Source: Dehalococcoidia bacterium (GTDB lineage: Bacteria > Chloroflexota > Dehalococcoidia > SM23-28-2 > HRBIN24). From it: a stretch of 64,000 nt of DNA. How positions within the stretch are numbered: the first letter of the stretch is position 1; the number at the start of each line of letters is the position of its first letter. This document shows, piece after piece, positions 19,909 to 34,160 of this stretch. A model generated the notes under the pieces. The model ran no database searches. It saw nothing but the letters and a program-made list of their open reading frames with translations, and was not told where the DNA came from. Location of the stretch: NCBI GenBank assembly GCA_034435615.1, contig DAOTWZ010000034.1, positions 4,381 to 68,380 of the forward strand. The letters are read 5' to 3'. The translations under genes and the position numbers were made by a program.

Positions 19909-20889
19909 ATGAGGGAGATGCCTTCCCCTGTCCGGGCCGCCGGCAGGGAGAGCCCCCACCCCTGGGCGGTGGAGGCGGAGGGGCTGGTCCTGGCCTACGG
20001 CGATCACCGCGCTCTGGACGGCCTCACTCTCAACGTCCCCGGCGGACAGCTCTTCGGCCTGCTGGGGCCCAACGGCTCTGGCAAGAGCACCCTGGTGCTG
20101 GCGCTGGCGGGGCTGCTGCAGCCCCAGGCCGGTGCCCTGCGAGTGCTGGGGCGTCCTCCATCGCCCGCTGTGCGGGCCTATATGGGCTTCCTCTTCCAGG
20201 GCAGCAGCCTGGACCCTTTCATGACGGTGGAGGAGACGCTCTGGCTGGCCGGGCGCCTCTACGGCCTGGGGGGACGGACGCTCAGGCGGCGCCTGGAGGA
20301 GCTCCTGGAGGGCTTCGGCCTGGGTGAGCGCTCCCGCGATGCCGTCCGCACCCTCTCCGGCGGCCTGCGCCGGCGGCTGGAGCTGGCCCGCGCCCTCCTC
20401 CACCGGCCGCGCCTGCTGGTCCTGGACGAGCCCACCACCGGCCTGGACCCGGAGGCGCGGGCCGCCCTCTGGCAGCAGCTACTGGCGGCCAACGCCGCCG
20501 GGGTCACCGTCCTCCTGGTGACCCACGAGGTGCTGGACGCCGAGCGTTACTGTCAGCGGGTGGCCTTCCTCTCCCAGGGCCGGGTGGTGGCGGAGGGTAG
20601 CCCCCAGGAACTCAAGGCCGGCCTGCGGCGGGACGCCGTGGTGGTGGAGTGGCCCGCCTGCCCGCCCGATGTGCTGGCCGAACTCTCTCGCTGGCCGGAG
20701 GTGGGCGAGGCCACCTGGGCGCCGCCCCTCCTGCACCTGAGCGTGGACCGCGCCGCCGATGTCGTCCCCCGCCTCTTCCAGATGGCCGGCGACGGCATCT
20801 CCAGCGTGCACGTCCATCCTGCCACGCTGGAGGACGCCTACTTCGCCATCGTCGGCAGGCCCTTCAGGGTGGAGGTGGGGACGCCGTGA
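19909..20889 (+). CDS. ABC transporter ATP-binding protein (ABC-2 exporter type)
   Basis: Walker A GPNGSGKST, signature LSGGLRRRL and Walker B LVLDEP. Confidence 0.9.
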   Translation: MREMPSPVRAAGRESPHPWAVEAEGLVLAYGDHRALDGLTLNVPGGQLFGLLGPNGSGKSTLVLALAGLLQPQAGALRVLGRPPSPAVRAYMGFLFQGSSLDPFMTVEETLWLAGRLYGLGGRTLRRRLEELLEGFGLGERSRDAVRTLSGGLRRRLELARALLHRPRLLVLDEPTTGLDPEARAALWQQLLAANAAGVTVLLVTHEVLDAERYCQRVAFLSQGRVVAEGSPQELKAGLRRDAVVVEWPACPPDVLAELSRWPEVGEATWAPPLLHLSVDRAADVVPRLFQMAGDGISSVHVHPATLEDAYFAIVGRPFRVEVGTP

Positions 20890-21680
20890 CGGGCGCCCTG
20901 GCCGTCTGGCAGGCCCTCCTCTGGCGAGACCTGCGGGCCGTCCTGCGCTCCCGCTCCCAGCTCTACTCCTCTGTCCTCTTCCCCCTCATGGTGGTGGCCT
21001 TCCTGGGGGCTGGCGTCTCCGGGGGGCTGGAGCCGGCCTCGGAGGCCATCCGTGACGGCGACTACGCCAGCTTCCTGGTGCCCGGCGCCATCGTCATGAC
21101 GGTGCTCTTCTCGTCCACCTTCTCCAGCGCCTCTTATTACTACGACAGGGACTGGGGGGTGTTGAAGGTCCTGCTGGTCTCCCCTCACCGGCCGATGGTG
21201 ATATTCGTGGGGAAGGCGCTGGGGGCGGTGGTCATCGGGTCGTTGCAGGCGCTGCTGGTCCTGCTCATCGCCTCGCTGGTGCCGCCCCTGGACCTGGCAT
21301 GGCAGTATGGCGTCCTCGCCGGCGTGCTGCTGACGCTGCTGACGGTGCTCCTTCTCTCCTCCTTCCTGGCCGGCCTGGCCCAGGTCCTGGCGAGCCGCAT
21401 CCGCACCATGCAGGGCTTCCACCTGCTGATGAACCTGGTCCTCTTCCCCTTCCTCTTCTTCTCCGGTGCCTTCTTCCCCCTGGAGGACCTGCCCCGCTGG
21501 TTGCAGGTGCTGGCCGTCCTCAATCCCCTCTCTTACGCCGTGGACCTGCTGCGGCTGGCCGTCTACGCCGAGGGTGGGACCTTCCTGGGGCTGGCGGTGG
21601 ACCTGCCCGTTCTCCTCGTCCTCGGCCTCCTGGTTCCCCTGCTGGGCGCCAGCGTGCGGGCCCAGCGGGCCCTCGTCTAG
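20886..21680 (+). CDS. ABC-2 family transporter permease
   Basis: A GTG start overlaps the upstream stop (GTGA); six TM helices. The track ORF extends upstream in antisense. Confidence 0.78.
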   Translation: MTGALAVWQALLWRDLRAVLRSRSQLYSSVLFPLMVVAFLGAGVSGGLEPASEAIRDGDYASFLVPGAIVMTVLFSSTFSSASYYYDRDWGVLKVLLVSPHRPMVIFVGKALGAVVIGSLQALLVLLIASLVPPLDLAWQYGVLAGVLLTLLTVLLLSSFLAGLAQVLASRIRTMQGFHLLMNLVLFPFLFFSGAFFPLEDLPRWLQVLAVLNPLSYAVDLLRLAVYAEGGTFLGLAVDLPVLLVLGLLVPLLGASVRAQRALV

Positions 21681-21723: not shown

Positions 21724-22704
21724 GTGCGGTCTTTTCCGCGCCTGCCGCGGTGGGCGCTCCTCGTAGGGCCGTTGCTCGTGGCGACCCTCCTCGCCTGTGG
21801 CGGTGGTGGTAGCCCTTCCCCTGCTGGTGGAGACCCCACCAGCCCCGACTTCTGGCGGGTGGCCAGGCTAGGGGGAGAGATAAGCCCCCTCCTGGTGAAC
21901 AGCAGCCTGGCCGTGGGCAGCAACCGGGTGCAGTTCGGCCTCTTGGACCGGGAGCAGACGCCCATCCTAGGGGCCAGGGTGAACGTCCAGTTCTTCTACC
22001 TGGGCGGCGGCCAGCCCCAGCCCAAGGGGGAGAGGGAGACCCGCTTCGTCTCCATGCAGCTCTCCTTCGTGGACGAGAGCACCGGCCGCCTGGTGGAGCT
22101 CTCCCCCAATGGCGTCTATGTGACCGAGTTCAGCTTCGATACCGCCGGCCCCTGGGGGGCGGCCATCTCCGGCACCCTGTCCAACGGCGACCGCTTCGGC
22201 CCCCTGCCCTACCGGTTCGACGTGAGGGAGCGGACGCTGGAGCCCATGGTGGGCGACCCGGCCCCTCCCAGCGACAATCTCACTCTGCAGGACGTGAGCG
22301 ACATCAGGGAGCTCACCACCGACCTGCAGCCGATACCTGACCTCTACCGCTACACGGTGGCAGAGGCCCTCCAGACCGGCCGGCCCCTCGTCATCGTCTT
22401 CGCCACCCCCGCCTTCTGCGAGAGCCGCGTCTGCGGACCCGTCATGGAGGCCATCGTCCATCCTCTCTACCAGCGCTACCGCGAGCAGGCCATCTTCATC
22501 CACATTGAGCCCTACCAGCTCAAGGAGCTGCGGGAAGGGGTGGCCAGGATACCCGTCCAGGCGGTGAAGGACTGGAACCTCCCCTCTGAACCCTGGATCT
22601 TCGTGGTAGACCGCAACGGGCGGGTGGCTGCCAAGTTCGAGGGGATCGTATCGCTGGAGGAGGTGGAGGCGGCGCTGAAGGCGGTGCTGGGAGGCCAGCG
22701 ATAG
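21724..22704 (+). CDS. lipoprotein with C-terminal thioredoxin-fold domain (CxxxxC motif)
   Basis: Signal plus lipobox LLAC; C-terminal VIVFATPAFCESRVCGP thioredoxin-like segment. The track M is a GTG start. Confidence 0.72.
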   Translation: MRSFPRLPRWALLVGPLLVATLLACGGGGSPSPAGGDPTSPDFWRVARLGGEISPLLVNSSLAVGSNRVQFGLLDREQTPILGARVNVQFFYLGGGQPQPKGERETRFVSMQLSFVDESTGRLVELSPNGVYVTEFSFDTAGPWGAAISGTLSNGDRFGPLPYRFDVRERTLEPMVGDPAPPSDNLTLQDVSDIRELTTDLQPIPDLYRYTVAEALQTGRPLVIVFATPAFCESRVCGPVMEAIVHPLYQRYREQAIFIHIEPYQLKELREGVARIPVQAVKDWNLPSEPWIFVVDRNGRVAAKFEGIVSLEEVEAALKAVLGGQR

Positions 22705-22796: not shown

Positions 22797-23777
22797 ATGG
22801 AGTATGTTCAGCTAGTCCTGGCCCAGATCCCCGGCGATAAGCTGGACGAGGCGCTGCGCCCCGGCGGGCTCCTCGCCAAGCTGGACGACCACCGCAACTA
22901 CCTGGTCCACCAGCCGGGCTTCCACGACCTGCGGGTGGTGCGCTCCATCAACCGTGAGGGGAACGTCCAGCTAGTGGTGGAGACCCGCTGGGAGGACGAC
23001 CAGAGCCTCATCGACTACGAGACGGGCGAGCCCACCGTCGTCTCCATCCTCAACGAGCACCGTGACCTGCTGGTGCCCGGCAGCCTGCAGGTGCTGGACA
23101 TGGAGGCCCTGCGCAGCGAGGGCTGGTGGCAGCAGTTCGAGGCGGAGCAGGCGGTGCGCCAGCGCCTGGCCTTCCCCATCTTCCTGCCGGTGGGTATCTT
23201 CCTCTTCTCGGTGCTGGTCATATACGGCCTCTCTCGCATCTACCTGGAGCTGGCCGAGTGGCACTGGGGCGATGTCAACGGCGCCACCGTCCTGGCCCTG
23301 GTGGTGGCCACCATCATCCTGGGCACGGGCACTTTCGTGGCCCTGAACCGCAACATCAAGGCCTGGCAGATAGGTGGCCTCGCCGCCTTCTTCCTTCTGG
23401 CCATCCTGGCGGGGAGTATCTGGGCGGCCGTGCACGAGGGAGGGGGCGCCGCCGAGGCCGGCCCGCCAGTTGAGGGCGGCGCCCCGGCCGGTGGTGCCCT
23501 CACCATACGGGCCGTCCCCTCCCTCCGGTTCGACAAGGACCGCCTCACCGTCCCCGCCAATCAGCAGGTCACCATCACCTTCGTCAACGAGGACACCGGC
23601 ATCCCCCACAACTTCGCCGTATACCGGACGCAGGCCGCCACCGAGGTCATCGCCCAGGGAGCTACCTGCATTGCCCCCTGCCAGAACACGGTGACGGTGC
23701 CGCCCCTCTCCGCTGGTCGCTACTTCTTCCGCTGCGATGTCCACCCGCAGATGACGGGTACTCTGGTGGTCCAGTAG
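22797..23777 (+). CDS. fusion protein: N-terminal ABM (dimeric alpha/beta-barrel) domain, 3 TM helices, C-terminal type-1 copper cupredoxin (auracyanin/plastocyanin-like)
   Basis: Type-1 Cu ligand set HNFAV ... CDVHPQM (His, Cys, His, Met); three hydrophobic helices mid-protein; an ABM-like N-terminus. Confidence 0.78.
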   Translation: MEYVQLVLAQIPGDKLDEALRPGGLLAKLDDHRNYLVHQPGFHDLRVVRSINREGNVQLVVETRWEDDQSLIDYETGEPTVVSILNEHRDLLVPGSLQVLDMEALRSEGWWQQFEAEQAVRQRLAFPIFLPVGIFLFSVLVIYGLSRIYLELAEWHWGDVNGATVLALVVATIILGTGTFVALNRNIKAWQIGGLAAFFLLAILAGSIWAAVHEGGGAAEAGPPVEGGAPAGGALTIRAVPSLRFDKDRLTVPANQQVTITFVNEDTGIPHNFAVYRTQAATEVIAQGATCIAPCQNTVTVPPLSAGRYFFRCDVHPQMTGTLVVQ

Positions 23778-23816: not shown

Positions 23817-23845
23817 TGGGGGGCCGCCCGCACCGGGCGGCCCCC
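23817..23845. terminator. bidirectional GC-rich hairpin between convergent cupredoxin gene and ctaG
   Basis: GGGGGGCCGCCC-gcacc-GGGCGGCCCCCC forms a perfect 12-bp stem with no clear U-tract on either side. Confidence 0.5.
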
Positions 23846-23885
23846 CATCGCACTCGTGGTATCTTACGGGGTCCTGCGCGGACGG

Positions 23886-24797
23886 CTATCTGGAGGGGCT
23901 GGGCCCTTTGTCGCTGCGCCGGGTGAGGCCCAGCCGCTGCAACTCCGCCTCCACCCCCTCCCAGCGGGGGCCCCTCTCCTGGGCCTCGTGCTGGGCGTAC
24001 CAGCGGAAGAAGGCGACGGCGATGAAGACCCACATGATGATGGCCGGCACCAGCTTCATCACCAGGCCTCCCACCTGCTGGTCGGTTATGGGGTCCAGCC
24101 GCTCCCAGATGCGGGGGCTCTGTCCGTAGATGGGGTAGATGAGGCGGTCGGAGAAGGTGAGGAAGGAGGCCAGGACAGAGGGTATGAGGGACTGGGCAAA
24201 CAGGTAGGCCATTTGCATGGGGTAGGAGATGGGCGGCAGTTCGGGCATGTTGCTGAGCACCGGCCACCAGAGGACGAGCCCTGCCAGGAGGAGGAGGGCG
24301 TGCACCAGGATGTGGTACCAGCCCTGCTGCACCTGGAGCTCTATGGAGGGCGGCAGGTGGGTGAAGAGGAGCACGCCGTTGAAGACGAAGAGGGCCACTA
24401 TGGGGTGCACCAGCCAGCGGGCGAGACCCCTGACGGGTCCCTGGGGCAGCAGCCATTGCCAGAGCCAGGAGGGGACGCCCGCCAGGAGGAGGGGGGCGGC
24501 GATGGTGGTGAAGGCCACGTGCTGCATCATGTGGGCGCTGGCCAGCCAGCCCTCGGAGAGGCGCTCCAGGGGAGAACTGTCGGCCAGGTAGAGGGCGAAG
24601 AGCCCCAGCAGGAAGAGCCCTACCTGGGCCCGCTTCACCCGTCCGGCGTCAGAGATGCGGGGGCGCAGGTAGCGCAGGGCGTAGATGTAGGCCCCCAACA
24701 GGGCCAGGATGATGATGAGGACGTCGGGATGGATCCAGGCTGACCAGTCGAACGGCCCGGCACCGCCGGGTATGCCTACGATGTGCAGGAATGGCAT
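23886..24797 (-). CDS. ctaG: cytochrome c oxidase assembly factor CtaG (Caa3-type CtaG family)
   Basis: Polytopic membrane protein resembling Bacillus CtaG, at the distal end of the cox operon. Confidence 0.8.
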   Translation of the reverse strand: MPFLHIVGIPGGAGPFDWSAWIHPDVLIIILALLGAYIYALRYLRPRISDAGRVKRAQVGLFLLGLFALYLADSSPLERLSEGWLASAHMMQHVAFTTIAAPLLLAGVPSWLWQWLLPQGPVRGLARWLVHPIVALFVFNGVLLFTHLPPSIELQVQQGWYHILVHALLLLAGLVLWWPVLSNMPELPPISYPMQMAYLFAQSLIPSVLASFLTFSDRLIYPIYGQSPRIWERLDPITDQQVGGLVMKLVPAIIMWVFIAVAFFRWYAQHEAQERGPRWEGVEAELQRLGLTRRSDKGPSPSR

Positions 24798-24821
24798 CGC
24801 CCTAGCATCGCCCGCCCTTCC

Positions 24822-25166
24822 TCACAGGAGACCAGCCCCCAGAGTAGCCAAGGTAGCCACGAACAGGGCTATGGTCATCGCCAGACCCATAGCGAAGAGG
24901 GCCGAGAAGAGCTTGCTGTCGAAGCGCAGGTGCATGTACCAGAGGACCACCAGCACGAACTTGATGGAGGAGAGGGCCAGCAGCAGCTCCACCAGTATGC
25001 CGTGCAGAGACGGTATGTAGTAGATGGCCACCTCGATGGCGGTGACGATGAAGAGGATCACAGCCACCCGCACGTAGTCCGCCACCGTAGGGTGGAAGCC
25101 GTGCCTCTCTACCGTCTGGGCCTCTTCCTGGGCCTTGCGGACGCCACGCAGTTCGGACAGGGTCAT
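24822..25166 (-). CDS. ctaF: cytochrome c oxidase subunit IV (bacterial CoxD/CtaF type)
   Basis: 114-aa protein with 3 TM helices, immediately downstream of subunit III. Confidence 0.78.
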   Translation of the reverse strand: MTLSELRGVRKAQEEAQTVERHGFHPTVADYVRVAVILFIVTAIEVAIYYIPSLHGILVELLLALSSIKFVLVVLWYMHLRFDSKLFSALFAMGLAMTIALFVATLATLGAGLL

Positions 25167-25177
25167 CGGTCACCCTC

Positions 25178-25777
25178 CTAGGGCTGGATCAGATAGACCA
25201 GGGTGAAGATGAGGATCCAGACGATGTCCACGAAGTGCCAGTAGAGGCCGCTGAGCTCCACGTTGATGGCGTTGTGGCGTCCTATCTGCCCCCGCATGGC
25301 CATCACCCACAGGGAGAGGAGGATGAGGACGCCTACGGAGACGTGAGCGCCGTGGAAGCCGGTCAGGATGTAGAAGGTGCTGCCGAAGAGGTTGGAGGAG
25401 AGGGTCAAACCACGGTGGTAGAAATCGGTGAACTCGAAGGCCTGGCCGGCCAGGAAGGACATGCCTAGCAGGGCGGTGGTCAGCAACCACGTCCGCAGGG
25501 CGCGGACATCGCCCCGGTTGGCCGCCGCAACCGAGAGGGCCATGGTGGTGCTGCTCATGAGGAGGACGAAGGAGCTGACGGAGGTGAAGGGGATGTCGAA
25601 GACGTCGGACGGTTGGGGGCCGGTCTGGCTCTGGCCCCGGTACAGCAGGTAGGTGGCGATGAGGGAGCCGAAGAAGAAGGCCTCCGAGGCCAGGAACAGC
25701 CACATCGCCAGTTTGCGGTTGTCCAGCCCCGTGGAGGTCTCCAGGGTGGACTCGGCCAGGCGTGCCGTCTGGTGCAT
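25178..25777 (-). CDS. ctaE: cytochrome c oxidase subunit III
   Basis: Subunit III family similarity over the full length. Confidence 0.9.
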   Translation of the reverse strand: MHQTARLAESTLETSTGLDNRKLAMWLFLASEAFFFGSLIATYLLYRGQSQTGPQPSDVFDIPFTSVSSFVLLMSSTTMALSVAAANRGDVRALRTWLLTTALLGMSFLAGQAFEFTDFYHRGLTLSSNLFGSTFYILTGFHGAHVSVGVLILLSLWVMAMRGQIGRHNAINVELSGLYWHFVDIVWILIFTLVYLIQP

Positions 25778-25813
25778 CTGGTCTCCTCCTGCTCTCCCCT
25801 TCGTCCCTCTTCT

Positions 25814-27712
25814 TCACTCGCTGGCCGGCTCCAGGGCCCAGCCGTAAATGCCCAGCAGGAGCACCACCACCCCCGCCGCTACCAGGGCGTAGTCGGCGTA
25901 GATGAAGCCATAGCCGATGATGGGGAAGCCCAAGGCGGCGATGAGGGGGAAGTAAGAGGGAGAAGGCATGTGGATGCCATGGCCGCCGTGCCCCTCCGCC
26001 TCGTGGTGCTCCTCACCGTTGGCGCCGCCGGCCACCACGGGGACGGGGCGGCCCTCCTGGTCCTCCACGTACTTCTCGTGCCAGTAGGGGTCACGGGCCC
26101 GCACGTGGGGGATCTCGGCGAAGTTGTAGGGCGGAGGCGGCGAAGGAATGCTCCATTCCAGGGTGCGGCCGTCCCAGGGGTCGGCGCCCGCTACCTCGCC
26201 CCGCCGCATCACCAGGCTGTAGATGGCGTTGATGATGAACACCAGTATGGAGAGGGCGATGACGAAGGTGCCGATGGTGGCCAGCAAGTTCCAGATCTCC
26301 AGCCCGAAGCCAGAGGGGTAGGTGTAGACCCGTCGCGGCATCCCCATCAGCCCTGCCACCATCATGGGCTGGAAGGTCAGGTTGAAGCCCAGGAGCATCA
26401 GCCAGAAGTGGAGCTGCCCCAGCTTCTCGTTGAAGAGGCGGCCGGTGAACTTGGGCAGCCAGTAGTAGATGCCGGCGAAGAGGGCGAAGATAGCGCCGCC
26501 GAAGAGCACCTGGTGGAAGTGGGCCACCACGAAGTAGGTGTCCTGCTGCTGGTAGTCCGAGGGGACCATGGAGTGCATGACCCCCGTGAGCCCGCCGATG
26601 ACGAACATGCTGATGAAGCCCACAGCAAAGAGGAGGGGCGTGCGCAGACTGATGTTACCGCCCCACAGAGTCCCTATCCAGTTGAAGATCTTCACCCCCG
26701 TGGGGACGGCGATGAGGATGGTGGTGATGCCGAAGGCGGAGTTGGCCACCGGGCCCAGCCCCGTGGTGTACATGTGGTGCACCCACACGCCGAAGCTCAT
26801 GAAGGCGATGGCTATCCCCGAGAAGACCACGAAGGGATAGCCGAAGAGGGGCTTGCGGGCGAAGGTGGGCAGCACCTCCGATACGATGCCCATGGCTGGC
26901 AGGATGAGGATGTAGACCTCCGGGTGGCCGAAGAGCCAGAACAGGTGCTGCCAGAGCAGGGGCGTCCCGCCGGCCGCCGGGTTGAAGAAGTGGGCACCGA
27001 AGAGGCGGGAGAAAGACAGCTGGAACAGGGCCACCGCCAGCACCGGCATGGCGAAGATGATGAGGAACGAGGTCACCATCGTCATCCAGACGAAGACGGG
27101 CAGGCGGAAGAGGGACATGCCGGGCGCCCGCATGTTGAGGATGGTCACCAAGAAGTTGAAGCCGGAGGCCAGGGAGGAGATGCCCAGTATCTGGAGACCC
27201 AGGGCCCAGAAGTCTATGCCGTGCCCGGGCTGGCGGACGGTGAGAGGAGCGTAGCCGAACCAGCCCCCGTCCGGCGGACCGCCCAGGATATGGCTGGAGT
27301 AGAGGAAGAGGCCTCCCAGGAGGAAGACCCAGTAGCTGAAGGCGTTCAGGCGGGGGAAGGCCACGTCCCGGGCACCGATCATCAGCGGCACCACCAGGTT
27401 GAAGAAGGCGGAGGAGAGAGGCATCACCACCAGGAAGATCATGGTGGTGCCGTGCATGGTGAAGAACTCGTTGAAGGTCTGGGGGTCGACGATGTCGGCC
27501 TCGGGGCGGGCCAACTGAAGGCGGATGAGGAGAGCGTAGATGCCGCCCGCCAGGAAGAAGAGGAGGGAGGTCACCAGGTACATCATGCCGATGCGCTTGT
27601 GGTCCACCGTGGCGATCCAGCTCCAGATGCCCTGGTAGGTGGCAGCGTCCCGGCGGACCTGACGCAGCGTCTCCAGCAGCCCCAGGGGCTTCGGTACCGT
27701 CGCTTGCGCCAT
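25814..27712 (-). CDS. ctaD: cytochrome c oxidase subunit I (heme-copper oxidase, A-type)
   Basis: 632 aa with canonical subunit I His ligands, plus a C-terminal extension. Confidence 0.95.
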   Translation of the reverse strand: MAQATVPKPLGLLETLRQVRRDAATYQGIWSWIATVDHKRIGMMYLVTSLLFFLAGGIYALLIRLQLARPEADIVDPQTFNEFFTMHGTTMIFLVVMPLSSAFFNLVVPLMIGARDVAFPRLNAFSYWVFLLGGLFLYSSHILGGPPDGGWFGYAPLTVRQPGHGIDFWALGLQILGISSLASGFNFLVTILNMRAPGMSLFRLPVFVWMTMVTSFLIIFAMPVLAVALFQLSFSRLFGAHFFNPAAGGTPLLWQHLFWLFGHPEVYILILPAMGIVSEVLPTFARKPLFGYPFVVFSGIAIAFMSFGVWVHHMYTTGLGPVANSAFGITTILIAVPTGVKIFNWIGTLWGGNISLRTPLLFAVGFISMFVIGGLTGVMHSMVPSDYQQQDTYFVVAHFHQVLFGGAIFALFAGIYYWLPKFTGRLFNEKLGQLHFWLMLLGFNLTFQPMMVAGLMGMPRRVYTYPSGFGLEIWNLLATIGTFVIALSILVFIINAIYSLVMRRGEVAGADPWDGRTLEWSIPSPPPPYNFAEIPHVRARDPYWHEKYVEDQEGRPVPVVAGGANGEEHHEAEGHGGHGIHMPSPSYFPLIAALGFPIIGYGFIYADYALVAAGVVVLLLGIYGWALEPASE

Positions 27713-27725
27713 AGCTATTACCTCC

Positions 27726-28541
27726 CTAGCGGGCCGTCCCTTGCTGTTGGCCCTGGCCGCTCTGGGCCTGGGCAGCTAGTTGCTGCTGCGCCCAGGCGCG
27801 GAAGCTCTCCTCGCTCTCGTGGACCACCACTACCATGCGCATGTCGGCGTGCAGGAGACCACAGTACTCGGCACACTGGCCGGGGTAGGTGCCCGGCTCC
27901 TCCGCCACCAGCAGCAGGTGGTTGGTGTGGCCGGGGATGGCGTCCCTCTTGCCGGCCAGCCGTGGCACCCAGAAGCTGTGGATGACATCGGAGGCTGTGA
28001 GCTCCAGCGCCACCTCCTGGCCGACAGGAATATGGAGCTCAGCGGGGCGCTCCGGGGTGCCCAGGATGGTCAGGGGCTTCCCCTGGCTGTCGGTGATGGT
28101 GGGATACTCGAACTGCCACGCCCACTGGATGCCCGTCACCTTGACGGGGAGGGCGTTGGCGGAAGGCGGGCGGTCATGGTCTATGATCATGGAGACCATG
28201 GGCACCGCCAGCCCCAGGAGGACGAAGAGGGGCGCCAGCGTCCAGATCACCTCTATGGGCGGGTTGCCGTGCACCTGCTTGGGCAGGCTACGGCCGCGCC
28301 GGTGGCGGAAGACGATGAGGGCGACGATGAGCGCCCCTTCCACCAGTATCATGATGGCCAGGGCCGGCCACATGGCGTAGAGGAACAGGTTCTTCTGCTC
28401 CCGTGCGAACTCCCCCCGCGGGGCGAAGGTGTTCTGGGGGGCGTCCACATCGCCGATGCCAGTGCAGGCGGTCAGGAGGACTACGAGGAGCAACGGGAGC
28501 AGGGGGACCAGGTATCGGGCCAGAGTGCGCAGCGTCTTCAA
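27726..28541 (-). CDS. ctaC: cytochrome c oxidase subunit II (CuA; no fused cytochrome c domain)
   Basis: CuA ligands HSFWVP ... CAEYCGLLHADM. 271 aa, so there is no C-terminal cytochrome c domain. Confidence 0.93.
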   Translation of the reverse strand: MKTLRTLARYLVPLLPLLLVVLLTACTGIGDVDAPQNTFAPRGEFAREQKNLFLYAMWPALAIMILVEGALIVALIVFRHRRGRSLPKQVHGNPPIEVIWTLAPLFVLLGLAVPMVSMIIDHDRPPSANALPVKVTGIQWAWQFEYPTITDSQGKPLTILGTPERPAELHIPVGQEVALELTASDVIHSFWVPRLAGKRDAIPGHTNHLLLVAEEPGTYPGQCAEYCGLLHADMRMVVVVHESEESFRAWAQQQLAAQAQSGQGQQQGTAR

Positions 28542-28623
28542 GGGTTCCGCTCCTTACGTCCTGGTGCCATTAGTAATCTCGCGCACCGGCGGTGTCCCGT
28601 CAACGGCTTCGTTCCTCGCATCA

Positions 28624-29523
28624 CTAAGTCGCCAGGGCGTCCACGGCTATGGCCAGGAAGAGGAGGGCCAGGTATAGGTTGGACCAGTGGAAGAGGAGGA
28701 TAGCCCGCCGGACGGTGGGCCGGAGCCAGAGCCAGCCCGCCTGGCCCAGGAGGACCAGCCCCAGCAGGGCCGCCGCTGCCAGGTAGAGGGGCCCCGCCTG
28801 GCTCACCGTGGGCAGGATGAGGCTCAGGGCCACCGTCCCCACGCCGTGAAAGAATATCTGCCGCCGCGTCTCGTCTTCTCCCATGACCACCGGCAGCATG
28901 GGCACCCCCGCCCGCTCGTAGTCGCGGCGGTAGTTCAGGGAGAGGGCCCAGAAGTGGACGGGCGTCCAGAGGAAGACGATGCCGAAAAGGAGGAGGGCCG
29001 CCGGCTCCAGCCGGCCCGTCACCGCCACCCAGCCGATGAGGGGGGGCATGGCCCCCGCCGCCCCGCCGATGACGATGTTCAGGGGCGTCGTCCGCTTGAG
29101 GGTGAGGGTGTAGACCAGGACGTAGAAGGCATAGGCGCCCAGGGTGAGGACGGCCGCCAGGAGGCCCACGAAGGCCTCCATCACCAGGAAGCCCGCCGCC
29201 CCCAGCGCCAGGCCGAAGACCAGGGCCCGGTCCGGCTCCACCTGGCCCGCCGGGATGGGCCGTCCCCGCGTCCGCAGCATCACCGTGTCGATATCGCGGT
29301 CGAAGAAGCAGTTGAGGGCGTTGGCGCCGCCGGCGGCCAGGGCGCCGCCGCCCAGGGTGGCCAGGACGAGCCAGGGGGACGGCCAGCCGCCCTCAGCCAG
29401 GAGCATGGCGGGCACGGTGGTGACCAGCAGCAGCACCACGATGCGGGGCTTGGTCAGGTGGAAGTAAGACCTGACCGTCCCCAGGAAGCCCCGCGTTTGG
29501 CCTCGGATAGCTGTTCCCAGCAA
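28624..29523 (-). CDS. ctaB: protoheme IX farnesyltransferase (heme O synthase)
   Basis: UbiA-superfamily CtaB/CyoE similarity. Confidence 0.9.
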   Translation of the reverse strand: MLGTAIRGQTRGFLGTVRSYFHLTKPRIVVLLLVTTVPAMLLAEGGWPSPWLVLATLGGGALAAGGANALNCFFDRDIDTVMLRTRGRPIPAGQVEPDRALVFGLALGAAGFLVMEAFVGLLAAVLTLGAYAFYVLVYTLTLKRTTPLNIVIGGAAGAMPPLIGWVAVTGRLEPAALLLFGIVFLWTPVHFWALSLNYRRDYERAGVPMLPVVMGEDETRRQIFFHGVGTVALSLILPTVSQAGPLYLAAAALLGLVLLGQAGWLWLRPTVRRAILLFHWSNLYLALLFLAIAVDALAT

Positions 29524-29524
29524 C

Positions 29525-30502
29525 TCAGTCCCCCTGACTCGCCCGGCGCTGCAGATAGAGCCAGCTCGCCGCTGTGACGAGGGCGGCCCAGATGGCGGAC
29601 GCCAGCGCCACGTGGGCCACGCGGGCCGCCGTCGGCAATTGTAGCCATATGTTGCTGGCCCCTACCAGCGTCTGGGCGATGTAAAACGTCACTGTCACCG
29701 CTGCCAGGGCCTGCAGGGGGCGTCGCCCCGTCCACCAGGCGCGGGCCGCCCACCAGAGGACGAGGAGGCCTATGAAGGCCGCCAGCACGCGGTGGGCGTA
29801 GTGGAGGTGGGCCAGCCGGCCCGGCCCCGGCAACACGCCGCCGTTGAAGAGGGGCCAGTCTGGGTAGACCAGGGCGGCCCCCAGGTTGGAGACGAAGGAG
29901 CCCAGCAAGTTCAGAGAGAGGACGGCCAGAGCGGCCACCAGCGTCACCGCCAGAAGGGGCCCCGGCCGAGCGTTCGCCCGCGCCCCCGGCCCGGCGGGGG
30001 CCAGCCCCCCCAGCACCGCCACCGTGGCGAAGAGAAGGGAAGCCAGCACGGCCAGCGCCATCCCCAGATGGGCGGCCCGCAGGGCCGGCGGCAGCTCCTG
30101 CTCCACGGTAGCGCCGCCCAGCAGCGCCTGGGCCACTATCAGGGGGATGGCCAGCGTCACCCCCAGCAGCAGGGGGCCGTTGTCGCGGTGCCGCAGCCAG
30201 ACCACCAGGGTGCTCAGGGCCACCAGCAGCCCCGTCACCGAGGCCAGCAGCCGGTGCGAGTACTCGATGAGGATCTGTCGCTCCAGGGGTGGCACCAGTT
30301 GCCCGTGGCAGAGGGGCCAGTCCGGGCAGGCCAGGCTGGAGCCGGTGGCCCGCACCGTCCCCCCGAGGACGATGAGGGCGTAGACCGACAGGGCGGAGAG
30401 AGGAACGAGGTAACGGGCACTCAGCCCCCACCAGGAACGTCTGACGGTGCCTTGGGGAACGGTGCCGAAGGTGAGGGAGCGGCGTCGCGACACCTGCCTC
30501 AA
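29525..30502 (-). CDS. ctaA: heme A synthase
   Basis: COX15/CtaA family with paired Cys (CPDWPLCHG) and His ligands. The TTG start at 30502 is uncertain; GTG at 30493 is an alternative. Confidence 0.82.
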   Translation of the reverse strand: MRQVSRRRSLTFGTVPQGTVRRSWWGLSARYLVPLSALSVYALIVLGGTVRATGSSLACPDWPLCHGQLVPPLERQILIEYSHRLLASVTGLLVALSTLVVWLRHRDNGPLLLGVTLAIPLIVAQALLGGATVEQELPPALRAAHLGMALAVLASLLFATVAVLGGLAPAGPGARANARPGPLLAVTLVAALAVLSLNLLGSFVSNLGAALVYPDWPLFNGGVLPGPGRLAHLHYAHRVLAAFIGLLVLWWAARAWWTGRRPLQALAAVTVTFYIAQTLVGASNIWLQLPTAARVAHVALASAIWAALVTAASWLYLQRRASQGD

Positions 30503-30715: not shown

Positions 30716-31861
30716 ATGAGCCAGCCGACCAGCGCCCCCGAGGTGGCCCGTGGCCTTAAGGGCGTCGTCCTGGACACCACCGAGACGAGCCTCATAGACG
30801 GTGAGCAGGGGAAGCTCCTCTACCACGGGTATAACATCCATGACCTGGCGGAGCGCTCCACCTTCGAGGAGGTCATCTACCTCCTCTGGCACGGACGGCT
30901 GCCCCGTCGGGCGGAGCTGGAGGAGCTGGATCGTCAGCTCAAGGAGAGCCGGGCCCTGCCCCCGGCCGTCATCGAGGTCATCCGGCTGGTGCAGAAGGCC
31001 CACCCCATGGACGTCCTGCGCACCGCTGTCTCCGCCCTGGCCGCCTTCGATCCCGACGTGGACGACCACTCTCGAGAGGCGGTCATCCGTAAATCGGTGC
31101 GGCTGACGGCACAGGTCCCCACCATCGTGGCCGCCCATGACCGTATCCGCCGCGGCCTGGAGCCGGTGGCCCCCCGGCCCGACCTGAGCCACGCCGCCAA
31201 CTTCCTCTATATGCTCCACGGCAGGGAGGCGGACGAGGAGGCGGTGCGGGCCATCGACGTGGACCTGATCCTACACGCCGAGCACGGCTCCAACGCCTCC
31301 GCCTTCGCCGCCCGCGTCACCGTCTCCACCGGCTCGGACCTGCACTCGGCCATCGTCAGCGCCATCGGCACCCTCAAGGGGCCCCTGCACGGGGGAGCGG
31401 CCGAGGCGGTGATGCGGATGGTGGAGGAGATAGGGGAGCCGGAGCGGGTGGACGAGTACATAGAGCGCACCCTGGCCGAGGGCCGGCGGGTGATGGGGAT
31501 GGGCCACCGCGTCTACAAGGTGGAGGACCCCCGCGCCCGTCACATGCGGGAGCGGGCACGCGTCCTGGGGGAGAAGCTGGGCCAGCCCAAGTGGTACCAG
31601 ATACTGGAGCGCATCGCCGAGGTGACGGCACCCATGCGGGCCCGCGGCATCTCCCTGAACGTGGACTTCTACGCCGGCGCCGTCTACTACCTGCTGGGAA
31701 TCCCGGAGGACCTCTTCATCTCCATGTTCGCCATGGGGCGGATGCCCGGCTGGTGCGCCCACGTCCTGGAGCAGATGCAGAACAACGTGCTCATCCGGCC
31801 CCTCCTCCACTACGCCGGGCCGATGGACCTGGAGTACGTGCCCCTGGAGCAGCGGGGCTAG
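30716..31861 (+). CDS. citrate synthase (type II / 2-methylcitrate synthase-like, about 380 aa)
   Basis: Citrate synthase signature GHRVYK and catalytic His/Asp context. The real start is ATG 30716 after a GGAGAGGAG RBS; the track ORF upstream is antisense to ctaA. Confidence 0.9.
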   Translation: MSQPTSAPEVARGLKGVVLDTTETSLIDGEQGKLLYHGYNIHDLAERSTFEEVIYLLWHGRLPRRAELEELDRQLKESRALPPAVIEVIRLVQKAHPMDVLRTAVSALAAFDPDVDDHSREAVIRKSVRLTAQVPTIVAAHDRIRRGLEPVAPRPDLSHAANFLYMLHGREADEEAVRAIDVDLILHAEHGSNASAFAARVTVSTGSDLHSAIVSAIGTLKGPLHGGAAEAVMRMVEEIGEPERVDEYIERTLAEGRRVMGMGHRVYKVEDPRARHMRERARVLGEKLGQPKWYQILERIAEVTAPMRARGISLNVDFYAGAVYYLLGIPEDLFISMFAMGRMPGWCAHVLEQMQNNVLIRPLLHYAGPMDLEYVPLEQRG

Positions 31862-31919
31862 GAACGGGGAGACGGAGAAGGACGAGGCCCTGATGGCGGG
31901 CCCCCCGGCGGGGCCCGCC

Positions 31920-32711
31920 TCACTCTATCTTCTCGATCCGGAAGCGGACGCGGCCCGCCGGCACCTGCACCTCCACCTCGTCACCAGGCCGGCGGTCCAG
32001 GAGGGCCCGCCCGACGGGCGAGGCGCTGGAGATGCGGCCGCCGCTGCCGCTGGCCTCGCCCGGGCCCACCACCGTGTACTTGAGGAGGCGGCCGTCCGCC
32101 AGGTTGCGCAGGTGGACGGTGCTCCCCAGCTGGACGCGCTGGCCGGACTCGTCCTGGGAGGGGCCGTCCACGATGACCGCCCGCCGGAGGATGGACTCTA
32201 TCTCCCGGATGCGCGTCTCCAGGTGGGATTGCTTCTCCCGGGCGGCCTGCAAGGGGGCGTTCTCGCGAAAGTCCTTGTCCAGGGCGGCGCGACGTATCTC
32301 CTCGGCGATGAGGGGACGCTGGGCCTTCAGGGACTCCAGCTCCGCCTGGAGTGCGGCGTAACCCTCCGCCGTCATCTCCACGGGGGCGGCAGCGGGGGCC
32401 GCCCGCCTGGGGGCCTGGGCGCGTCGCACCCGCACGTGCTGGGCCAGGGCATGGGGCACCAGCTTCCTCTCGCGGAGGTAGGACAGGAACTCCTTCAGGG
32501 CCTGGGCCCGTTGCTGGGCCGTCTCCCCGCTCCCCAGGTTCCCCGATTCCACATAGCGGGCGATGTCAGGGCCCTGGAGCTGGTTCAGGGCGGCATCGCG
32601 GCCGTACCAGTTCACGAAGTCCAGGACGACGCGGCGGGCCTCCGCCTGCCGGCCGGCCTCCAGCGATGAGAGGTAGTTTTCTGCCGCCTGGGCGAGTGTG
32701 ATGGACTCCAT
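31920..32711 (-). CDS. GreA/GreB-family transcription elongation factor homologue with about 100-aa N-terminal extension resembling integrase SAM-like/core-binding domain
   Basis: Start at ATG (plus-strand cat 32709-32711). The C-terminal 160 aa align to GreA (coiled coil plus FKBP-like domain, VVGPGEASGSGGRISSASPVGRALL); the N-terminal 100 aa are separate. Confidence 0.72.
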   Translation of the reverse strand: MESITLAQAAENYLSSLEAGRQAEARRVVLDFVNWYGRDAALNQLQGPDIARYVESGNLGSGETAQQRAQALKEFLSYLRERKLVPHALAQHVRVRRAQAPRRAAPAAAPVEMTAEGYAALQAELESLKAQRPLIAEEIRRAALDKDFRENAPLQAAREKQSHLETRIREIESILRRAVIVDGPSQDESGQRVQLGSTVHLRNLADGRLLKYTVVGPGEASGSGGRISSASPVGRALLDRRPGDEVEVQVPAGRVRFRIEKIE

Positions 32712-32753
32712 GGCAAAATTCCATTCTAGGGAAAGCGAGGAGGGACGGTCAAC

Positions 32754-33509
32754 GTGGAGGAGAGCTCGCAGGGGCAGCAACTGGAGGTGCTGCAGGCCGG
32801 GGCCGCCCGGCTGGGCGTCCCTCTGGAGGCCGGGACTTTGGAGCGCTTCGCCCTCTATTACCGCGAGCTGGCGAAGGCGGCGCCCCTGCTGGACCTCACC
32901 AGCGTCGTAGGGCCAGAGGAGGTGCAGCGACGCCATTTCCTGGAGTCCCTGGCGGTGGGCCGGGCCTTGGAGGAGCTGGGGGTGCTGGACCGGGAGCGGC
33001 CGCTGCGGGCCATCGATATAGGCGCCGGGGCGGGCTTCCCCGGCCTGCCCATACGGCTGGCCTGGCCCCGCCTCCGCCTCACCCTCCTGGAGGCGAGCCG
33101 GCGCAAGGCGGAGTTCCTGCGTCGCCTGGTGGATGCCCTGGGGCTGGGGGACGTGGAGGTGGTGTGGGCGCGGGCCGAGGAGCTGGCCCGCCAGCCAGCC
33201 CACCGTGAGTCCTACGACCTGGCCCTGGCCCGCGCTGTCGCCTCCCTGCCCGTCCTGGTGGAGCTATCGCTCCCCCTGCTGAGGGTCGGTGGCTACCTGG
33301 CGGCGCCCAAGGGGAGCCGGGCCCTCCAGGAGATGGCGGAGGCGCGGGGGGCGCTGGCCGCCTGCGGGGGCGACCAGCCCGTCGTCCATCCCCTACCACC
33401 TCTGGGCGGTGGCACCCTGCCCCTACTAGTTTTGGTGAGAAAAGCGCAGCCAACGCCAGAGCGCTACCCCCGACGGCCCGGTATACCCGAAAAGCGGCCG
33501 TTGCGGTAA
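32754..33509 (+). CDS. rsmG: 16S rRNA (guanine527-N7)-methyltransferase RsmG
   Basis: GTG start at 32754; SAM-binding IDIGAGAGFPG motif and GidB family similarity. Confidence 0.85.
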   Translation: MEESSQGQQLEVLQAGAARLGVPLEAGTLERFALYYRELAKAAPLLDLTSVVGPEEVQRRHFLESLAVGRALEELGVLDRERPLRAIDIGAGAGFPGLPIRLAWPRLRLTLLEASRRKAEFLRRLVDALGLGDVEVVWARAEELARQPAHRESYDLALARAVASLPVLVELSLPLLRVGGYLAAPKGSRALQEMAEARGALAACGGDQPVVHPLPPLGGGTLPLLVLVRKAQPTPERYPRRPGIPEKRPLR

Positions 33510-33554
33510 GCTAGACGGGGCTGACAGGCCCCAGACCCCCTGAGGAGGTGGGCT

Positions 33555-34160
33555 ATGCGTCAGCGGGGAAGCGAGGTCTACTCCGGCGGCTGGTTGAGGC
33601 GGCTCCTGCGGGGCGATATGGCGCTCTTCGAGGACGCCCAGGCCGACCCCGGCGCTACTGTGCCTGCCCTGGCGGTGGTGATAGGGGCCAGCCTCCTCTC
33701 CGGCCTGGGCTCCTGGCTCTGGTGGGTCTTCCAGACGGACGTGGGCCGGCTGGAGGTCTTCCTCAAGTCCTTCCTCATCGGCGGCCTGTTGCAGGTGCTG
33801 GTGTGGCTGGTGTGGGTGTATGTGGCCTACCAGGTGCTGACCATAGGCTTCGGCACCATGGTCAGCTTCTACGGGATGGTGCGGGCTATGGGCTTCGCCT
33901 TCGTCCCCATGGGGCTGATGGTGCTGATGGCGGTGCCCCAGTTCACCGTCCCGCTGGCGGTCATCGCCATCGTCGCCACCGTCCTCCTCAGCCAACTGGC
34001 CCTGCAGGCCGTCACGGACTACGATGCCCCCCGGGCGGCCGTGGCGAACCTCATCGGCTTCGCTGTCTTCGCTCTGGTGATGGGGGTGCTGGCCAACATA
34101 GCCGAGGTCCGCAACATCGGCGGGGTGGCGCCGGGCCTCTTCTTCTTCGACCTCAATTAG
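33555..34160 (+). CDS. Yip1-family membrane protein
   Basis: Five TM helices with a Yip1-domain-like pattern. Confidence 0.65.
   Translation: MRQRGSEVYSGGWLRRLLRGDMALFEDAQADPGATVPALAVVIGASLLSGLGSWLWWVFQTDVGRLEVFLKSFLIGGLLQVLVWLVWVYVAYQVLTIGFGTMVSFYGMVRAMGFAFVPMGLMVLMAVPQFTVPLAVIAIVATVLLSQLALQAVTDYDAPRAAVANLIGFAVFALVMGVLANIAEVRNIGGVAPGLFFFDLN

Follow-up and report, generated by a model that had tools for sequence, protein, structure and literature searches.

An ABM-cupredoxin fusion protein beside an aa3-type oxidase cluster in Chloroflexota, a candidate tethered electron-entry subunit

What is known about the respiratory chains in non-phototrophic Chloroflexota comes almost entirely from lists of genes. 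How do electrons reach an aa3-type oxidase whose subunit II contains a CuA centre and no cytochrome c domain? We address this question for a 64,000-nucleotide stretch of DNA (hereafter the window) from a Dehalococcoidia bacterium (GenBank assembly GCA_034435615.1, contig DAOTWZ010000034.1, positions 4,381 to 68,380 of the forward strand). Here, a gene on the plus strand (22797-23777) encodes a protein that joins an antibiotic-biosynthesis-monooxygenase-like (ABM) domain, three transmembrane (TM) helices and a flexible linker to a cupredoxin with the ligands of a type-1 copper site. As already reported in a preliminary description made from the sequence alone, and as borne out here, this gene is convergent with ctaG at the end of a ctaA-ctaB-coxB-coxA-coxC-coxD-ctaG cluster on the opposite strand (23886-30502). 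We consider it probable, though far from certain, that its product is a tethered blue-copper electron-entry subunit which feeds the CuA of the adjacent aa3 oxidase and is a functional equivalent of the cytochrome c domain of caa3 oxidases. The family would then offer a concrete answer to the question of how electrons reach CuA-only aa3 oxidases, namely by a copper protein that is tethered to, or built into, the oxidase.

One reading frame, a membrane anchor and a predicted type-1 copper site

The gene has an ATG start codon preceded by a Shine-Dalgarno-like sequence (GGTGGTGAGG) and encodes 326 amino acids plus a stop codon; its G+C content at third codon positions (GC3; 0.90) is usual for coding DNA in the window, which has a GC content of 67-70%. 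A sigma-70 promoter scan around the gene gave no match. The same protein, with 100% identity, is found among the annotated proteins of a contig from the metagenome-assembled genome (MAG) GCA_006214125.1, and a search of 5.8 billion proteins retrieved at least 380 relatives. Among the 120 relatives listed, the great majority are 320 to 345 amino acids long with 100% query coverage. A frameshift or two-gene artefact is ruled out by more than 100 homologues of this length that span the complete open reading frame (ORF). The single ORF of the preliminary description, with ABM region, three hydrophobic helices and cupredoxin, thus agrees exactly in coordinates and length, and the fusion is real, the same full-length architecture being conserved in all these homologues. 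It also appears to be new, as proposed: full-text searches of the accessible literature yielded no description of an ABM-cupredoxin fusion, nor of an ABM protein tied to a terminal oxidase.

An AlphaFold model of the protein, built with 108 homologues as input (mean model confidence, pLDDT, 89), shows an N-terminal beta-alpha-beta-beta-alpha-beta domain (amino acids 1-105), helices, a disordered linker and a C-terminal beta-sandwich (amino acids 235-326). The ABM/Dabb-fold domain occupies amino acids 1-106 (22797-23114). It is followed by three TM helices (23166-23435) at about amino acids 124-146, 162-183 and 191-213 according to hydropathy and charge, with the corresponding helices of the model at 107-152, 162-183 and 189-214; the first of them (TM1) ends in an invariant motif, YGLSRIYLE. 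The charge is positive in loop 2 (NRNIKAW) and net negative in loop 1, which by the positive-inside rule gives an N-in/C-out orientation, and the protein has no signal peptide. Together with the number of helices and the cysteine pairs described below, this argues for a cytoplasmic ABM domain and a copper domain on the outer side, so that the three helices of the preliminary description are confirmed and now have a predicted topology. Between anchor and copper domain lies a linker rich in Gly, Ala, Pro and Glu (amino acids 214-234, 23436-23498), which has low model confidence (pLDDT below 50 at residues 216-231, i.e. disordered), varies in length among homologues and contains not a single conserved column.

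The cupredoxin makes up amino acids 235-326 (23499-23774). Pfam Cupredoxin_1 (PF13473) matches amino acids 244-325 with an E-value of 2.5e-12 (47.2 bits, cut-off 27), so that the cupredoxin assignment is significant in a domain search with hidden Markov models (HMMs), and Copper-bind (PF00127) remains just below its cut-off (19.7 versus 21.2 bits). The beta-sandwich is modelled with a pLDDT of about 97, and Foldseek recognizes the Greek-key fold with a probability of 1.00 against auracyanin, amicyanin, rusticyanin and plastocyanin. The best structural match is auracyanin A (2aan, E 2.8e-8), followed by the Roseiflexus auracyanin, amicyanin and auracyanin B, and further matches include rusticyanin and AcoP (7z3b); by sequence, auracyanin A (E 4.3e-5), the Roseiflexus auracyanin and auracyanin B take ranks 1 to 3 of a phmmer search against the PDB. 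The earlier label 'auracyanin-like' is therefore accurate, since these three proteins are the nearest solved relatives both by sequence and by fold. Both ligand motifs, HNFAV and RCDVHPQM, are present, and the four ligands His271, Cys313, His316 and Met319 are invariant in 108 of 108 aligned homologues, confirming the complete His, Cys, His, Met set noted previously. With this ligand set and this fold, the protein is expected to bind copper at a type-1 site. The metal-binding loop (CDVHPQM) has the short C-x2-H-x2-M spacing of amicyanins.

The copper domain contains in addition a pair of cysteines, Cys291 and Cys295 (23667-23681), which probably form a disulfide. At the corresponding alignment columns (approximately 320-345), close relatives show TCIAPC and distant ones a Cx6-8C arrangement such as FCTAGGEAPC, and in some homologues the pair is absent. 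Such pairs suggest an oxidising, outer compartment and are consistent with an extracytoplasmic location of the copper domain.

Oxidase clusters and sister architectures

All genes of the oxidase cluster in the window are on the minus strand. They encode, starting next to the fusion gene, a Caa3_CtaG-type assembly factor (ctaG, 23886-24797; PF09678, E 3.6e-53), the prokaryotic subunit IV (coxD, 24822-25166; COX4_pro, E 5.6e-10), subunit III (coxC, 25178-25777; COX3, E 4e-21), a subunit I of 632 amino acids with a C-terminal CtaF-type two-helix extension (coxA, 25814-27712; TIGR02891, 713.7 bits, above cut-off), a subunit II of 271 amino acids with a lipoprotein-type signal and CuA (coxB, 27726-28541; TIGR02866, 186 bits, above cut-off), and the heme O and heme A synthases (ctaB and ctaA, 28624-30502; UbiA, E 1.1e-67; COX15-CtaA, E 9.7e-42). 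CoxB carries the CuA motif CAEYCGLLHADM, ends only 37 amino acids after it and has no CxxCH, which verifies the earlier statement that it contains CuA only and no fused cytochrome c. Lacking a heme c domain of this kind, the cluster represents an aa3-type oxidase with a Caa3_CtaG-family assembly factor.

The same holds true beyond the window. We scanned one genome per GTDB species and obtained 47 loci (numbered with the prefix L), all of them from Chloroflexota MAGs, onto which the window proteins were mapped by tblastn; likewise, wherever relatives of the protein carry a source name they are Chloroflexi or Dehalococcoidia MAG proteins, so that all named sources and all fetched loci belong to the Chloroflexota. 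In the fetched loci, none of the 37 full-length CoxB reading frames contains CxxCH (in L058, coxB is cut at a contig end), while the CuA motif is present in 36 of the 37, followed by 21 to 67 residues. No probable coding (high-GC3) ORF of the 64-kb window contains CxxCH, and genes for alternative complex III (ACIII) or bc genes are likewise absent from it. Near the related aa3 clusters we found no recurring cytochrome c gene; the few flanking ORFs with CxxCH encode large unrelated proteins or belong to a cbb3-like cluster. The absence of a cytochrome c donor beside coxB, on which the preliminary description had made its proposal depend, is thus seen both in the window and in its relatives, and every oxidase associated with the family needs an external one-electron donor. 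In one related locus (L015 / L050, 13140-14932; a MAG with a 2.78 Mb contig) gene calling breaks coxA into three pieces, probably because of frameshift errors in the assembly and not because it is a pseudogene.

The fusion gene abuts ctaG of a ctaA-ctaB-coxBACD-ctaG cluster in 29 of the 32 loci with enough flanking sequence. In L036 it directly precedes coxB on the same strand; in L018 its position is right behind ctaB. Could this adjacency nevertheless be incidental, the protein being a general carrier on the periplasmic side that serves another enzyme, such as a nitrite reductase or an amine dehydrogenase? The amicyanin-like loop spacing, weak matches of amicyanin HMMs to the copper domain and the convergent orientation in the window would fit such a role. 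However, proximity to cox genes is kept in loci where the protein is only 37% identical to that of the window, while the opposite (upstream) flank is variable; no partner enzyme is conserved nearby; and other lineages show same-strand operon placement and gene fusions with oxidase modules (see below). We therefore regard an incidental association as very improbable.

A profile of the ABM domain matched only 67 proteins among 1.84 billion cluster representatives, which characterizes it as a small and specific ABM subfamily; one of the matches, a 710-amino-acid repeat protein (P0184), was judged spurious. The search of the preliminary description's architecture across genomes thus retrieved not only the conserved fusion but further ABM and cupredoxin architectures linked to oxidases. 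Next to the window type (i), there are proteins of the same layout that have a tandem pair of cupredoxins, both with the complete set of ligands (ii), and proteins that consist of an N-terminal two-helix module, the ABM domain, a single TM helix and one or two cupredoxins (iii). The latter are typical of the Tepidiformaceae, including the cultured Tepidiforma thermophila, and their genes follow coxC on the same strand in the usual slot of subunit IV (L051, L052, L060/L061); in T. thermophila (L061) the operon reads ctaA-ctaB-coxB-coxA-coxC-[2TM-ABM-TM-cupredoxin]. In a fourth type, the two-helix module and the ABM domain occur without a cupredoxin (iv), encoded in L058 by a gene whose stop codon overlaps the start of coxB and in L059 near a ctaG-like gene. 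A fifth type comprises stand-alone ABM proteins of 106 to 107 amino acids in a conserved cassette with small membrane proteins (v), which in L056 comes after ccoN-ccoO of a cbb3-like cluster. Finally, there is an ABM-less form of about 245 amino acids (vi) that combines the same three-helix anchor (LVIYGLSRIYLELN) with a sulfocyanin-type copper domain (Pfam SoxE, 24-32 bits versus a cut-off of 21) and whose genes are located between ctaA and ctaG in 8 of 8 loci (L041-L048). A search of six-frame ORFs with the family HMM revealed no separate ABM gene near these ABM-less relatives.

The cbb3-like cluster of L056 (4594-11260, GCA_021787985.1), also found in L057, encodes CcoN (497 amino acids), a fused FixO/di-heme c protein (364 amino acids), small membrane proteins of 96, 103 and 59 amino acids, the stand-alone ABM protein (107 amino acids), a 155-amino-acid protein with a TM helix and a beta-rich part, a lipoprotein cytochrome c (147 amino acids) and a second COX1-family protein of 640 amino acids. 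The cassette of the 103- and 59-amino-acid proteins, the ABM protein and the 155-amino-acid protein is conserved in L054.

The two-helix module links the third architecture to the oxidase itself. In the window, the last approximately 67 amino acids of CoxA (about 25814-26017; HMPSPSYFPL...GWALE) match Pfam Cyt_c_ox_IV (PF12270, E 1.2e-5), the family of the actinobacterial subunit CtaF. The N-terminal module of the type (iii) proteins (HLPDPSxWP...GWAYE) matches the same Pfam family and aligns to residues 568-628 of the window CoxA (BLASTP E 3e-5), so that the HxPxPSxxP...GWAxE helix pair of CtaF is shared by the C-terminal end of CoxA in the window and the N-terminal end of ABM-cupredoxin proteins from Tepidiformaceae; the ABM-cupredoxin protein of the window does not contain it. 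CoxA carries the CtaF-like tail in 31 of the 34 window-type and ABM-less loci where CoxA was found, whereas in the type (iii) operons CoxA is 536 to 537 amino acids long and lacks it. An oxidase helix pair is thus attached either to CoxA or to the ABM-cupredoxin protein, and by a Rosetta-stone argument the latter should be part of the complex. This fusion and the position of the Tepidiformaceae gene in place of a subunit IV gene give indirect support to the status of an integral subunit. A relationship between the three-helix anchor and the CtaF-like module was considered and rejected (hhalign probability 0.8%).

Proposed electron entry by a tethered copper protein

We propose that the aa3-type heme-copper oxidase (A-family) next to the gene has the protein as an accessory subunit. 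The anchor of three helices would dock it in or next to the oxidase, and the flexible linker of about 20 residues would hold the blue copper domain at the outer face of the membrane, where this domain would accept single electrons from a donor further up the chain (an enzyme of the complex III type or a carrier) and hand them to the CuA centre of subunit II. On the cytoplasmic side, the ABM domain might contact subunits I and III as a docking, dimerisation or small-ligand-binding module, which is our best guess for this part. The blue-copper hallmarks, the replacement of the copper domain by a sulfocyanin-type domain, the tandem duplication and the presence of CuA-only subunits II make a tethered electron-entry subunit the most economical explanation. 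With respect to the earlier suggestion of a dedicated donor for this oxidase, the link to the oxidase is well supported by synteny, same-strand operon placement and fusions, while the donor role itself is what we infer from these features.

The location next to ctaG, with genes for an ABC-2 transporter and a thioredoxin-fold lipoprotein upstream, and outside the operon of structural genes in the window, could also be expected of a biogenesis factor that delivers or holds copper, or keeps cysteines reduced, for assembly of CuA or CuB together with CtaG and the TlpA-like lipoprotein; indeed, the copper chaperones PCuAC and CopC use cupredoxin-like folds. Yet the invariant site is a classical type-1 His/Cys/His/Met site and neither the Met/His-rich motif of PCuAC and CopC nor the CxxxC of Sco, and the nearest solved relatives are electron carriers. 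Two tandem cupredoxins with full ligand sets fit an electron relay better than a chaperone. Moreover, in the Tepidiformaceae the protein is fused to a subunit-IV-like structural module and encoded within the structural operon, and a sulfocyanin-type domain can take the place of the copper domain on the same anchor. A function in biogenesis is thus decidedly unlikely.

The use of blue copper proteins in place of cytochrome c is documented for the archaeal SoxM system, haloarchaea, Acidithiobacillus and photosynthetic Chloroflexus. The window protein shares its phylum with the auracyanins A and B of Chloroflexus aurantiacus and the auracyanin of Roseiflexus castenholzii, which resemble it as membrane-tethered type-1 copper proteins at the outer face, with E-values to its copper domain of 4.3e-5 to 5e-3 by sequence and about 1e-8 by fold at 24-28% identity. 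They differ in having a single N-terminal anchor and no cytoplasmic domain, whereas the window protein consists of several parts (ABM domain, three TM helices, linker and copper domain); the similarity resides mainly in the N-terminal half of the copper domain, the metal loop of the window protein being of the amicyanin-like C-x2-H-x2-M type. The electron transfer that we propose for the window protein is the part that auracyanin probably plays in Chloroflexus. We know of no auracyanin encoded beside cox genes. Auracyanin has been described as the periplasmic electron acceptor of ACIII (PMC10873879).

For a role at the oxidase itself, sulfocyanin SoxE is a close parallel. According to PMC5461723 (citing Komorowski & Schäfer 2001), it is an electron carrier within the SoxM oxidase supercomplex of Sulfolobus, and, as we propose for the window protein, a membrane-anchored blue copper protein that is encoded with the terminal oxidase and forms part of the complex. 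SoxE is archaeal and has no ABM domain, and the copper domain of the window protein is of the Cupredoxin_1 type, with no match to the SoxE profile (PF06525) in a Pfam scan; it is the ABM-less sister family that matches SoxE. The cytochrome c domain of caa3 subunit II and the anchored cytochromes c552 and cy would have the same role, that of a tethered or fused one-electron entry into CuA. The window cluster also shares its Caa3_CtaG-type assembly factor with the caa3 systems, but the window protein would carry copper instead of heme c, is a separate polypeptide and has an unrelated fold.

AcoP and rusticyanin of the rus/cox operon of Acidithiobacillus ferrooxidans are cupredoxins that are encoded with coxBACD, as is the case here. 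AcoP, a membrane-associated protein, interacts with cytochrome c as well as with the oxidase and restores activity (PMC4059628). It points to another explanation, in which the window protein binds the oxidase and stabilises or tunes it while the true donor is a cytochrome c, or a cytochrome of complex III, encoded elsewhere. The appearance of AcoP among the structural matches, the fact that conservation is highest in the ABM domain and TM1 instead of the copper domain, and the c-type cytochromes of relatives, for example in the cbb3-like cluster of L056, are in line with this explanation. On the other hand, neither the window nor any aa3 cluster examined contains a cytochrome c gene, a long flexible tether suits shuttling, and the canonical blue-copper ligands contrast with the unusual green copper site of AcoP, which acts mainly in stabilisation at acid pH, has a single anchor and no ABM domain and comes from another phylum. 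We consider a purely AcoP-like function quite unlikely.

Several observations nevertheless weigh against the electron-entry function proposed above. In the window, the gene is convergent with the cox operon and not co-transcribed with it, and in three loci (L007, L019, L027) a full-length window-type gene has no cox gene within the flanking sequence available, which for L007 and L027 extends 10 kb to either side. Conservation across the family is lowest in the copper domain (35% mean identity to the window protein, 8 of 92 columns at least 95% conserved), compared with 64% and 34 of 106 columns for the ABM domain and 61% and 11 of 28 columns for TM1; the selected core function may thus lie in the ABM domain and TM1. 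A donor cytochrome c, or a supercomplex partner such as the di-heme QcrC of Actinobacteria, may be encoded elsewhere in the genome, and, as AcoP demonstrates, stabilisation can be the main function of a cupredoxin at an oxidase (PMC4059628).

If electron entry by the tethered copper domain is true, the solution of using blue copper instead of cytochrome c would extend to a large bacterial clade. The cultured Tepidiforma thermophila, with its sister architecture, makes biochemical and structural tests feasible; our literature search on the respiration of Tepidiforma found nothing relevant.

The ABM domain and the flanking genes

Since blue-copper donors to oxidases are already known, the potentially new component is the oxidase-associated ABM module. 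Its assignment, proposed in the preliminary description, stands at the level of fold and falls short at the level of sequence: the modelled domain (pLDDT about 97) can be superposed on ABM structures, whereas Pfam ABM (PF03992) matches below threshold (E 0.0032, 18.0 bits versus a cut-off of 23.1). A stand-alone homologue (P0144) passes PF03992 with 25.3 bits. Members of the ABM family such as LsrG, Rv0793, TT1380, ActVA-Orf6, IsdG/MhuD and YgiN share only 7-19% identity with the domain, which differs from them in being membrane-tethered and oxidase-associated and in lacking a known set of catalytic residues. To our knowledge, no other ABM protein is both membrane-tethered and associated with an oxidase.

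Does the core function of the protein then reside in this cytoplasmic domain, as an enzyme or as a binder of heme or another ligand in the service of heme-copper oxidases, with the cupredoxin as a lineage-specific addition? The ABM domain is the most conserved region, it occurs without a cupredoxin in both cox and cbb3-like clusters, many members bear the JGI label 'plastocyanin/heme-degrading monooxygenase HmoA', and Trp65 aligns with the conserved Trp66 of IsdI. This Trp is, however, the only residue of the Asn/Trp/His triad of IsdG-type enzymes that aligns, and at the position of the heme ligand there is no conserved His but a conserved Tyr74-Glu75. An IsdG-like triad (Gln5/Trp65/Glu75 versus Asn7/Trp67/His77) is accordingly not supported, the positions other than the Trp being unconserved across architectures. 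The residues that are conserved in most or all sequences across architectures (Gly41-Phe42, Gly55, Glu62-Thr63-x-Trp65, Leu71, Tyr74 and Asp101-Met-Glu103) look mostly structural, apart from Tyr74 and the Asp-Met-Glu motif. The permanent fusion to structural TM modules speaks for a resident subunit and against a transient assembly factor, and ABM-less forms with anchor and cupredoxin are found beside otherwise similar cox clusters. Taken together, it is unlikely that the ABM domain alone accounts for the core function, an explanation which in any case is compatible with electron entry through the copper domain and does not exclude it.

The ABM domain is nonetheless more than the odd appendage as which it might be seen. 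Judged from conservation and gene context, this module has an association with heme-copper oxidases of its own and follows them through at least five gene architectures. No other part of the protein is better conserved, and selection constrains it more strongly than the copper domain. By the same comparisons, ABM domain and copper domain each have their own link to heme-copper oxidases, and in the window protein they are combined. The ABM domain is extremely conserved, is predicted to be cytoplasmic and occurs with oxidases of both the A and the C family, which points to a specific oxidase-related role, for which docking, dimerisation or ligand binding by a resident subunit would be our best guess. 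More tentatively, and with more doubt than confidence, we suggest that it might represent a previously unrecognised cytoplasmic module of Chloroflexota heme-copper oxidases (A-family aa3 and C-family cbb3-like) and thus a new kind of accessory subunit, which could bind a ligand (heme, quinone or a metal) or the proton-uptake surface of subunits I and III and regulate or assemble the enzyme. If so, a single subunit would touch both faces of the oxidase, with the ABM domain joined through the membrane to the blue-copper entry domain.

The region between the convergent stop codons of the fusion gene and ctaG contains a hairpin (23818-23846) with a perfect 13-bp G+C stem, GGGGGGCCGCCCG-CAC-CGGGCGGCCCCCC, and a 3-nt loop, which is a probable bidirectional terminator. 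It was missed by a terminator scan that relies on T-runs because no T-run is present there, and the stem was read directly from the sequence.

Upstream of the fusion gene and on the same strand, a gene at 21724-22704 encodes a lipoprotein with a lipobox, for which weak similarities indicate an Ig-like domain at the N-terminus and a thioredoxin fold of the TlpA type. Neither of its Pfam matches, YtkA (E 0.003) and Thioredoxin_2 (E 0.04), reaches the threshold, and the profile of the lipoprotein family finds the Thermus thiol-disulfide isomerase 3ia1 (E 0.003) and CycY in the PDB. Invariant motifs of the family are FATPAFCxxxxCGP, which is unusual, FIHIEP and EPW. Orthologues adjoin cox clusters in 12 loci, together with both the ABM-type and the sulfocyanin-type anchor subfamilies. 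The protein is possibly a TlpA/Sco-like factor for assembly of copper sites; of the earlier idea that it acts in copper delivery, the thioredoxin-fold similarity is found, albeit weak (TlpA-like and YtkA-like), and delivery would depend on this similarity.

Directly upstream of the lipoprotein gene, an ABC-2 transporter of the DrrAB type is encoded by genes for an ATPase and a permease (19909-21680, plus strand). The NCBIfam matches (drrA, E 4.8e-68; drrB, E 1.9e-47) are both under the equivalog cut-offs and only indicate a generic DrrAB-type transporter. The pair is located upstream of the cox neighbourhood in about 15 related loci.

On the other side of the oxidase cluster, the window contains a block of genes for citrate synthase, a GreA-like protein, GidB and Yip1 (30716-34157), which is syntenic in distant relatives (L049, with a 62% identical protein). 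In L056, greA-gidB-yip1 flank the cbb3-like oxidase cluster instead. The same flank next to different oxidases points to an exchange of oxidase clusters at a conserved site of the chromosome.

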